In this document: positions 17,287 through 17,483 of the stretch, one piece after another
How positions within the stretch are numbered: position 1 is the first letter of the stretch
Layout: every line of letters begins with the position of its first letter
Source: Eledone cirrhosa
Lineage: Eukaryota
Direction: 5' to 3'
Assembly: GCA_964016885.1 (NCBI GenBank)
Contig: OZ024743.1
Location: 16,244,001-16,308,000, forward strand
Length of the DNA: 64,000 nucleotides
Translations under genes and position numbers: made by a program
Notes under the pieces: model-generated
What the model was told of the DNA's origin: nothing
The model's input: only the letters and a program-made list of their open reading frames with translations
The model's database searches: none

Positions 17287-17483
17287 ATAGGAACAAGTAT
17301 GACCCCGACGGCAGAGCTCAAGCCGTTTCGGTGGCTAATTCTAGTCCAGAATTAGCCGTCGAAACGGCTTGAGATCTGCCGTCGGGGTCATACTTGTTCC
17401 TATTACCAACTCTACTACCCTAAGTATTGAGTACTTTGGTGCGTTATGGTCCAACTGGTTCCTTACCACATTTCCTTCGTTTT
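17287..17483 (+). mobile_element. Short PLE-type 3' terminus with fold-back palindrome, inserted in (TA)n
   Basis: Near-perfect palindrome 17287-17403 containing the HHR 3' half GAAA-CGGC(ttgagatct)GCCG-TC-GGGG. A second copy lies inverted at 29717-29865. Confidence 0.75.

Follow-up and report, generated by a model that had tools for sequence, protein, structure and literature searches.

The locus examined here raises the question of how a retroelement can leave behind short copies that are folded head to head and that carry only one half of a hammerhead ribozyme. Two such elements lie in the window, which is the whole stretch of 64,000 nucleotides of Eledone cirrhosa contig OZ024743.1 that was analysed, and the original prediction held that both are folded back inside hammerhead helices, with ribozyme secondary structure setting the point of truncation and of snap-back priming. 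Element positions are numbered from the predicted cleavage-site C, which is position 0 (window 17383 in copy 1 and 29815 in copy 2), and the two elements are laid out as follows.

17263..17289: (TA)n target to the left of copy 1
17288..17342, minus strand: copy 1, inverted arm lacking the tail, running from +19 to -35
17342..17343: copy 1, joint with a 1-nt overlap (T), joining -35 to -41 on the 3′ side of loop II
17343..17402, plus strand: copy 1, forward arm, from the 3′ side of loop II to the inner end site +19 (17402)
17350-17360, plus strand: copy 1, stem II 3′ strand
17361-17364, plus strand: copy 1, GAAA, followed by stem III and then the GUC site with its C at 17383
17384-17387, plus strand: copy 1, stem I 3′ strand GGGG
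17403..17483, plus strand: copy 1, 'tail' on one side only, covering +20 to +96 and followed by TTTT and (TA)n
29717..29844, minus strand: copy 2, forward arm and tail, -29 to +19, with the cleavage-site C at 29815 and the tail running to +96 at 29719
29839..29844: copy 2, joint with the 6-nt microhomology AGCCGT, at which -29..-24 pairs with -19..-14
29839..29865, plus strand: copy 2, inverted arm lacking the tail, running from about +7 to -19, its outer end trimmed into (TA)n

Both elements are present on the predicted strands, at 17287-17483 (+) and 29717-29865 (-); they share a 3′ terminus and align over 165 nt at 94% identity. Each consists of a palindrome plus a one-sided tail inside (TA)n, and the palindrome centres differ, as had been noticed. 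They are independent insertions, as proposed, because their subfamily letters (CATACTTG versus CTTATTTG) and their flanks differ; no target-site duplication is readable because similar (TA)n runs flank the other three ends too. It is also correct that only the 3′ half of the hammerhead is kept: neither stub has a complete core on one strand, and what is missing is the 5′ box together with the 5′ strand of stem I and that of stem II. The GUC-GGGG said to occur in both holds for copy 1, while the forward arm of copy 2 reads GTC-GAGG. An Rfam scan of the window at E≤1 returned no hammerhead match, and such a scan is uninformative for half motifs.

The hairpin at which copy 1 folds back had been placed where stem II should be, but it is a product of the inversion: GGCTAATTCT belongs to the inverted arm and is the reverse complement of AGAATTAGCC, and the same place in uninverted long copies reads CGGCTATT(C/T)A or CGGCTAATTA, unlike GGCTAATTCT. 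A native, wobble-paired stem II formed by GGTGGC of copy 1 was ruled out, since the long copies show a different 5′ strand. The joint of copy 1 lies in loop II, and its forward arm begins at -41/-40, the commonest end point of the family, the A at 17343 being the putative start of the RNA. The AGCCGT/ACGGCT of copy 2 is a genuine native inverted repeat, and to this extent the earlier view stands that a 6-nt self-complementary stretch set the joint; its two halves belong to the 3′ strand of stem II and the 5′ strand of stem III, and their pairing forms no hammerhead helix. This hairpin competes with the hammerhead fold (stems II and III) and is predicted in part of the ensemble, with a pair probability of 0.19-0.84 depending on copy and length. 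That both centres lie inside hammerhead helices is thus not confirmed.

The two window elements are unremarkable, dead copies belonging to a very large family. In the 3.0-Gb host genome the 34-nt tail pattern has 23,177 exact matches, and a variant 44-mer has 429. A parent locus, L151, was found by self-alignment to hold an inverted pLTR, a 5′-truncated copy and a 3.65-kb unit with a broken ORF; its pLTRs stand in partial tandem, an inverted copy lies next to them and the tail is on one side only, and the tail stretch continues into the ORF. The L151 ORF carries YRDD and VIY..YIG motifs, as of a reverse transcriptase (RT) and a GIY-YIG-like endonuclease, with a Cys-rich linker ahead of the endonuclease motifs, and is 44% identical over 396 aa to the window ORF of Penelope-like element (PLE) type at 31798-33558. 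The PLE call rests on motifs and layout because a Pfam search with the L151 ORF at E≤0.1 gave no match; the related window ORF matched GIY-YIG at E=0.003, below the curated cut-off, and a PDB sequence search gave no match. By these motifs and this layout, the family is classed as a predicted endonuclease-bearing (EN+) PLE, and the layout supports the original suggestion of a PLE-type inverted pLTR. A non-LTR retrozyme, which passages of 10.64898/2026.07.22.740005 define by tandem units each with a full hammerhead, does not describe the stubs, which are dispersed palindromes with half a motif.

Other PLE-type sequences occur in the window. A 5′-truncated PLE of another family at 29885-33759 (-) has a 586-aa open frame (31798-33558) between a 301-nt, 100% identical inverted pLTR pair (29971-30271 and 33459-33759) and a canonical CTGATGA core at 30078-30072, and copy 2 is located in the (TA)n at its 3′ end. 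A third PLE-type ORF with RT and GIY-YIG, broken into three frames, lies at 26557-28612 (-), and a 206-aa open frame at 34947-35567 (+) with a Cys-rich GIY-YIG-like end is possibly a further PLE fragment. Another dispersed, GC-richer repeat is present in four copies (1904-2431, 53057-53584, 61036-61563 and 62382-62914), with inverted matches at 54665-54954 and 62145-62434.

Long uninverted arms reveal what the stubs lack. The 27 long arms listed (one copy appears twice among them, and the false row L013 was excluded) read CCCC-YUGANAA-G, with the boxes CTGAGAA in 9, TTGANAA in 17 and TTGACAG in 1; the literal CUGANGA box expected after CCCC and upstream of stem II in the parent occurs in 0/27, and YUGANA(A/G) stands in its place. 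The 5′ strand of the parent's stem II is CGGCTATT or CGGCTAATT, with other letters after it. A U3-A8 variant core with stems I-III, GAAA and NUH is found in 17/27 long arms, and a forced hammerhead fold comes within 0.5-2.8 kcal/mol of the minimum in 3/3 copies, so that on these fold predictions the parent motif has the features of a type I hammerhead of the U3-A8 variant. Passages of PMC4209133 describe U3-A8 as a PLE hammerhead variant, and the motif seen here resembles the hammerheads described there in being a type I motif in the pLTR, with U3-A8 replacing C3-G8 and a palindromic loop III. It differs from them, as far as those passages go, in its 6-bp stem III, its loop II of ~30 nt, the putative RNA start inside loop II, and C3 with A8 in 9/27 long arms. 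The last combination (CUGAGAA, for example in L032, L047, L055, L058 and L006) is common to whole subfamilies, and the C3-A8 core mismatch may mark an inactive or re-registered hammerhead that still spread.

Two fixed outer ends recur in the family, at +19 and at about +96. One tail is present in 125/132 tail-selected stubs, and two-tailed copies make up 4/132. Junction-selected elements have one tail in 30/30 and 20/20 cases, which rules out an independent choice of the two outer ends.

Inner ends were mapped by parsing 288 loci and the window, which gave 607 arm calls and 236 distinct short palindromic elements; 149 of the 236 had not been selected by their joint, and 132 of these passed the alignment filter while 17 were dropped. 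Most sampled elements were chosen by the tail, in genome order, from two contigs, and tail-less elements are for this reason under-sampled. Copy 1 is among the 132; copy 2 went uncalled by the parser because its outer end is trimmed. The parser covered arms up to position -75, which places long inverted copies outside the mapping, and the 40 tail copies without a called short partner comprise 14 long ones, 1 starting at -65..-46, 11 at -45..-34 and 14 further 3′. Of the 264 inner ends in the 132 elements, 180 lie within the same 11 nt of loop II, -44..-34, with a peak at -40 (40/264), side peaks at -36 (21) and -34 (27), a single end at -45 and none from -46 to -55. The peak zone is broad, and 40/264 arms extend to -41..-44 with native letters. 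A reading of TTTAG/TTCAG as a splice acceptor was ruled out, since the arms peak at -40 and not at -38 and no upstream exon is joined.

This distribution is not the one that ribozyme helices would impose. The core helices hold 60 of 254 arm ends against 56% under an even spread (P=2e-25), and with the peak zone left out they hold 60 of 73 against 72% expected (P=0.07), at most a weak lean to helices. Nor do the joints concentrate at helices, as would follow if ribozyme structure had set them: the true stem III register has up to 197 joints genome-wide (exact 22-mers; an undercount, as the pattern misses two subfamilies) and is no commoner than non-helix registers, among them the register of copy 2, with 504 joints (exact 22-mers). 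The loop III palindrome register gives 276 strand matches, or about 170 elements (61 places among the first 100 of the 276 matches), again an undercount that misses two subfamilies, and the loop-less TCGA palindrome register gives 103 joints genome-wide. Self-complementary words attract joints and helices are not special; any microhomology between a sequence and its own inverse resembles a hairpin.

The polarity of the joints bears on how the inverted arm was primed. If hammerhead helices stalled the RT and the inverted arm were primed by a single cDNA snapping back on a helix, one would expect the microhomology above chance that is observed, the stem III class of up to 197 joints and the copy-2 hairpin predicted in part of the ensemble, and half of the joints are compatible with it in polarity. 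Target-primed cDNA folding back must, however, leave the tail arm longer, and the tail-less arm was longer in 46 cases, the tail arm in 48 and the two were equal in 25 (n=119), with the junction class of copy 2 split 15:15 (by eye, one tail being divergent) and the stem III class 10:10. The symmetric polarity is therefore not that of snap-back: in half of the joints, the stem III class included, the loop lies on the tail-less arm, a polarity that snap-back cannot produce. Together with the avoidance of core helices by arm ends, the non-native hairpin of copy 1 and loop-less palindromic joints as common as stem III joints, this largely refutes the helix-stall account, which we consider very improbable. 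Two other groups of PLEs point the same way. In a sister family, which has a canonical CUGAUGA core and is represented in the window, palindrome centres lie 68-97 nt upstream of the core in 14/14 called cases, and Naiad PLEs, according to passages of PMC8557442, make inverted copies without canonical hammerheads; for both reasons the ribozyme is not needed for inversion.

Sister-family palindrome centres lie mostly 28-50 nt upstream of a splice-donor-like word, GGTA(T/C)GTC (clustering at L021, L109, L144, L157, L240, L247, L255, L260, L289 and L311), a centre-to-donor spacing that resembles the 46-nt start-to-intron distance of the D. virilis Penelope.

Inverted repeats can invert their spacer, and snap-back at all joints, followed by flipping of the loop through recombination between the arms, would yield a 50:50 polarity. 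The most unequal elements speak against it: in 18/125 the tail-less arm exceeds its partner by 15 nt or more, and 14 of these 18 share at most 25 nt with the partner arm. The arms have not been homogenised either, as their discordance equals the independent-mutation value at monomorphic sites, and we find later flipping of this kind hardly credible.

Agreement between the arms constrains the number of templates. At diagnostic non-CpG sites the arms disagree in 9/353 cases (2.6%) against a background of 181/6,337 (2.9%), and independent arms would differ at 24-62% of such sites; since the arms agree at background level, one RNA or one source locus served for both, and a single RNA template is the probable case. 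Two of 178 elements (L013 and L024) switch subfamily at two sites, where at most 0.15 were expected, and L033 and L304 have, by eye, arms from two subfamilies. Two templates are used now and then, and the one-RNA rule has exceptions. The joints themselves overlap by at least 2 nt in 32 of 82 insertion-free cases (39%) against 14% in simulation, and an element 6-mer is found in 18 of 22 insertions of at least 6 nt (shuffled mean 7.8, maximum 15). Microhomology and templated insertions point to end-joining of two 3′ ends, and we take such joints to resemble polymerase theta products.

The commonest end point carries a further mark. Position -40 is the A of TCAGT or TTAGT, which we take to be an initiator-like word, and the native base 5′ of this A is T or C in 18/18 long arms. 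Of the 40 arms that end at -40, 24 have G as the next base, compared with 40 of 184 at other ends (P=4e-6); among insertion-bearing joints G is found in 15/23 arms at -40 and 13/65 elsewhere (P=1.5e-4). Genome-wide, the base before the -40 A is the native T/C in 14,663 cases, G in 3,045 and A in 599. L260 reads (TA)n-G-AGTCC directly, with no partner arm. Among 30 G-selected loci inspected by eye, the G might derive from the partner arm in about 13 but not in the others. The non-native G at -40 is likely a cap footprint: an untemplated 5′ G on L1 has been read as a copy of the mRNA cap (passages of PMC9341517). Penelope is described as having its own transcription start in its pLTR (parts of PMC2377424 and PMC8557442). 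An origin of the T at -41 in random A-tailing was ruled out, T being present in 0/14 TTACTT-type and 17/32 CTACTC-type arms. In a closer sister family (AGTTCGG/AGTTCAG at the matching position; L105, L249 and L298), the few joints seen likewise have G before the -40 A. Long A/T runs occur in some joints right at the -40..-43 end (L103, L137, L188, L205, L283 and L300) and resemble reiterative copying of a U run at the RNA 5′-end.

We estimate a probability of roughly two in three that the head-to-head stubs derive from two cDNAs of one putatively capped RNA that starts in loop II, end-joined at (TA)n. Both DNA ends of a cut (TA)n target would prime reverse transcription on one RNA, putatively capped and starting at -40 inside loop II of the hammerhead. 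One cDNA would start at +19 and the other at about +96, both would be copied to about -40, and their 3′ ends would then be trimmed and joined by microhomology-mediated end-joining, a form of host repair. Copy 1 would be a near run-off joint, and copy 2 a trimmed joint annealed at its 6-nt inverted repeat. The stubs would hold half a hammerhead because an RNA starting at -40 never includes the 5′ half. On this evidence -40 would be a capped Pol II start and the joint presumably the work of host repair, while +19 and +96 would be two internal RT start sites by analogy with an anole element. According to passages of PMC11167929, the protein of the anole PLE in vitro cuts both strands of the target and extends them, begins at two internal sites between which the tail lies, and is predicted to form a dimer. 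The strict one-tail pattern (+19 on one arm, +96 on the other) falls outside what a two-cDNA reading explains.

That pattern is accounted for by the main rival, a free symmetric hairpin that primes itself, for instance on an antisense template as proposed by Arkhipova et al. 2013 (in passages of PMC3846280), and whose tail an endonuclease trims at +19 on either arm before insertion. Arm concordance and symmetric polarity would also follow, two-tailed copies exist (4/132), and +19 lies inside ATT, a motif preferred by the anole enzyme (part of PMC11167929). Such a hairpin does not predict the sense-strand G immediately 5′ of -40, though, and it makes arms from two subfamilies impossible; in the in vitro experiments that passages of PMC11167929 describe, moreover, the RT starts on sense RNA at either end of the tail. 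We judge it unlikely. It is also conceivable in principle to keep the two cDNAs and have them stopped near -40 by a block on a longer RNA, such as loop II contacts or a bound protein, rather than by a cap. This would rescue part of the first idea of ribozyme-set truncation and would suit the broad end peak and the weak AU-rich pairs predicted in loop II of the full motif. Yet the stronger, GC-rich stems III and II do not stop the RT, an excess of G is seen specifically at -40, and the centres of the sister family lie far upstream of its ribozyme, and a block seems to us quite unlikely. Collectively, the ribozyme-guided mechanism first envisaged is not supported, and a different, testable one, two cDNAs of a single capped RNA, is likely.

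The layout of these elements is already known for PLEs. The EN+ PLEs described in passages of PMC3846280, PMC8557442 and PMC2377424 share with this family the head-to-head inverted pLTR, the joint palindrome, the one-sided tail, partial tandems, (TA)n targets and an ORF with RT plus, at its C terminus, a GIY-YIG-like domain. Compared with those accounts, the tail here is ~77 nt and not 30-40, and most copies are ORF-less stubs of <200 bp; the passages of these three sources on EN+ PLEs describe no such clustering of inner ends at a single position marked by an additional G. How PLE inverted ends are built is named as an open question in part of PMC8557442. The anole Poseidon element (PAc; passages of PMC11167929) is likewise similar in having two internal end sites that bound the tail, AT-rich targets and no need for ribozyme cleavage, with an outer site 85-92 nt past the cleavage site (by subtraction) where the distance here is ~96 nt; the same passages give no model of inverted-copy joining and no mapping of cap-terminated ends. 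Among the open-access papers listed, cap-terminated overlapping twin priming was not stated for PLEs.

The joints of this family separate the models, against ribozyme-guided or plain snap-back and for two cDNAs that end at a capped RNA start. We lean slightly towards a general form of this account, in which PLE inverted pLTRs would be products of overlapping twin priming: a dimeric RT-endonuclease would make two copies of one capped RNA, each begun at one of two fixed internal sites and carried through to the cap, and host end-joining would fuse the cDNAs. In this family the promoter would fire inside the hammerhead. If so, the 5′ ribozyme copy of the RNA would be born disabled and only the read-through 3′ copy would be complete, and PLE start sites could be read from thousands of genomic joints with no need for RNA data. 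In L1 twin priming the two cDNAs cover different parts of the RNA, whereas the cDNAs proposed here would overlap and both reach the 5′-end, giving a palindrome. In other respects L1, as described in passages of PMC4245944 and PMC9341517, is alike: both target ends prime, the joint shows microhomology, and full-length copies carry an extra 5′ G.
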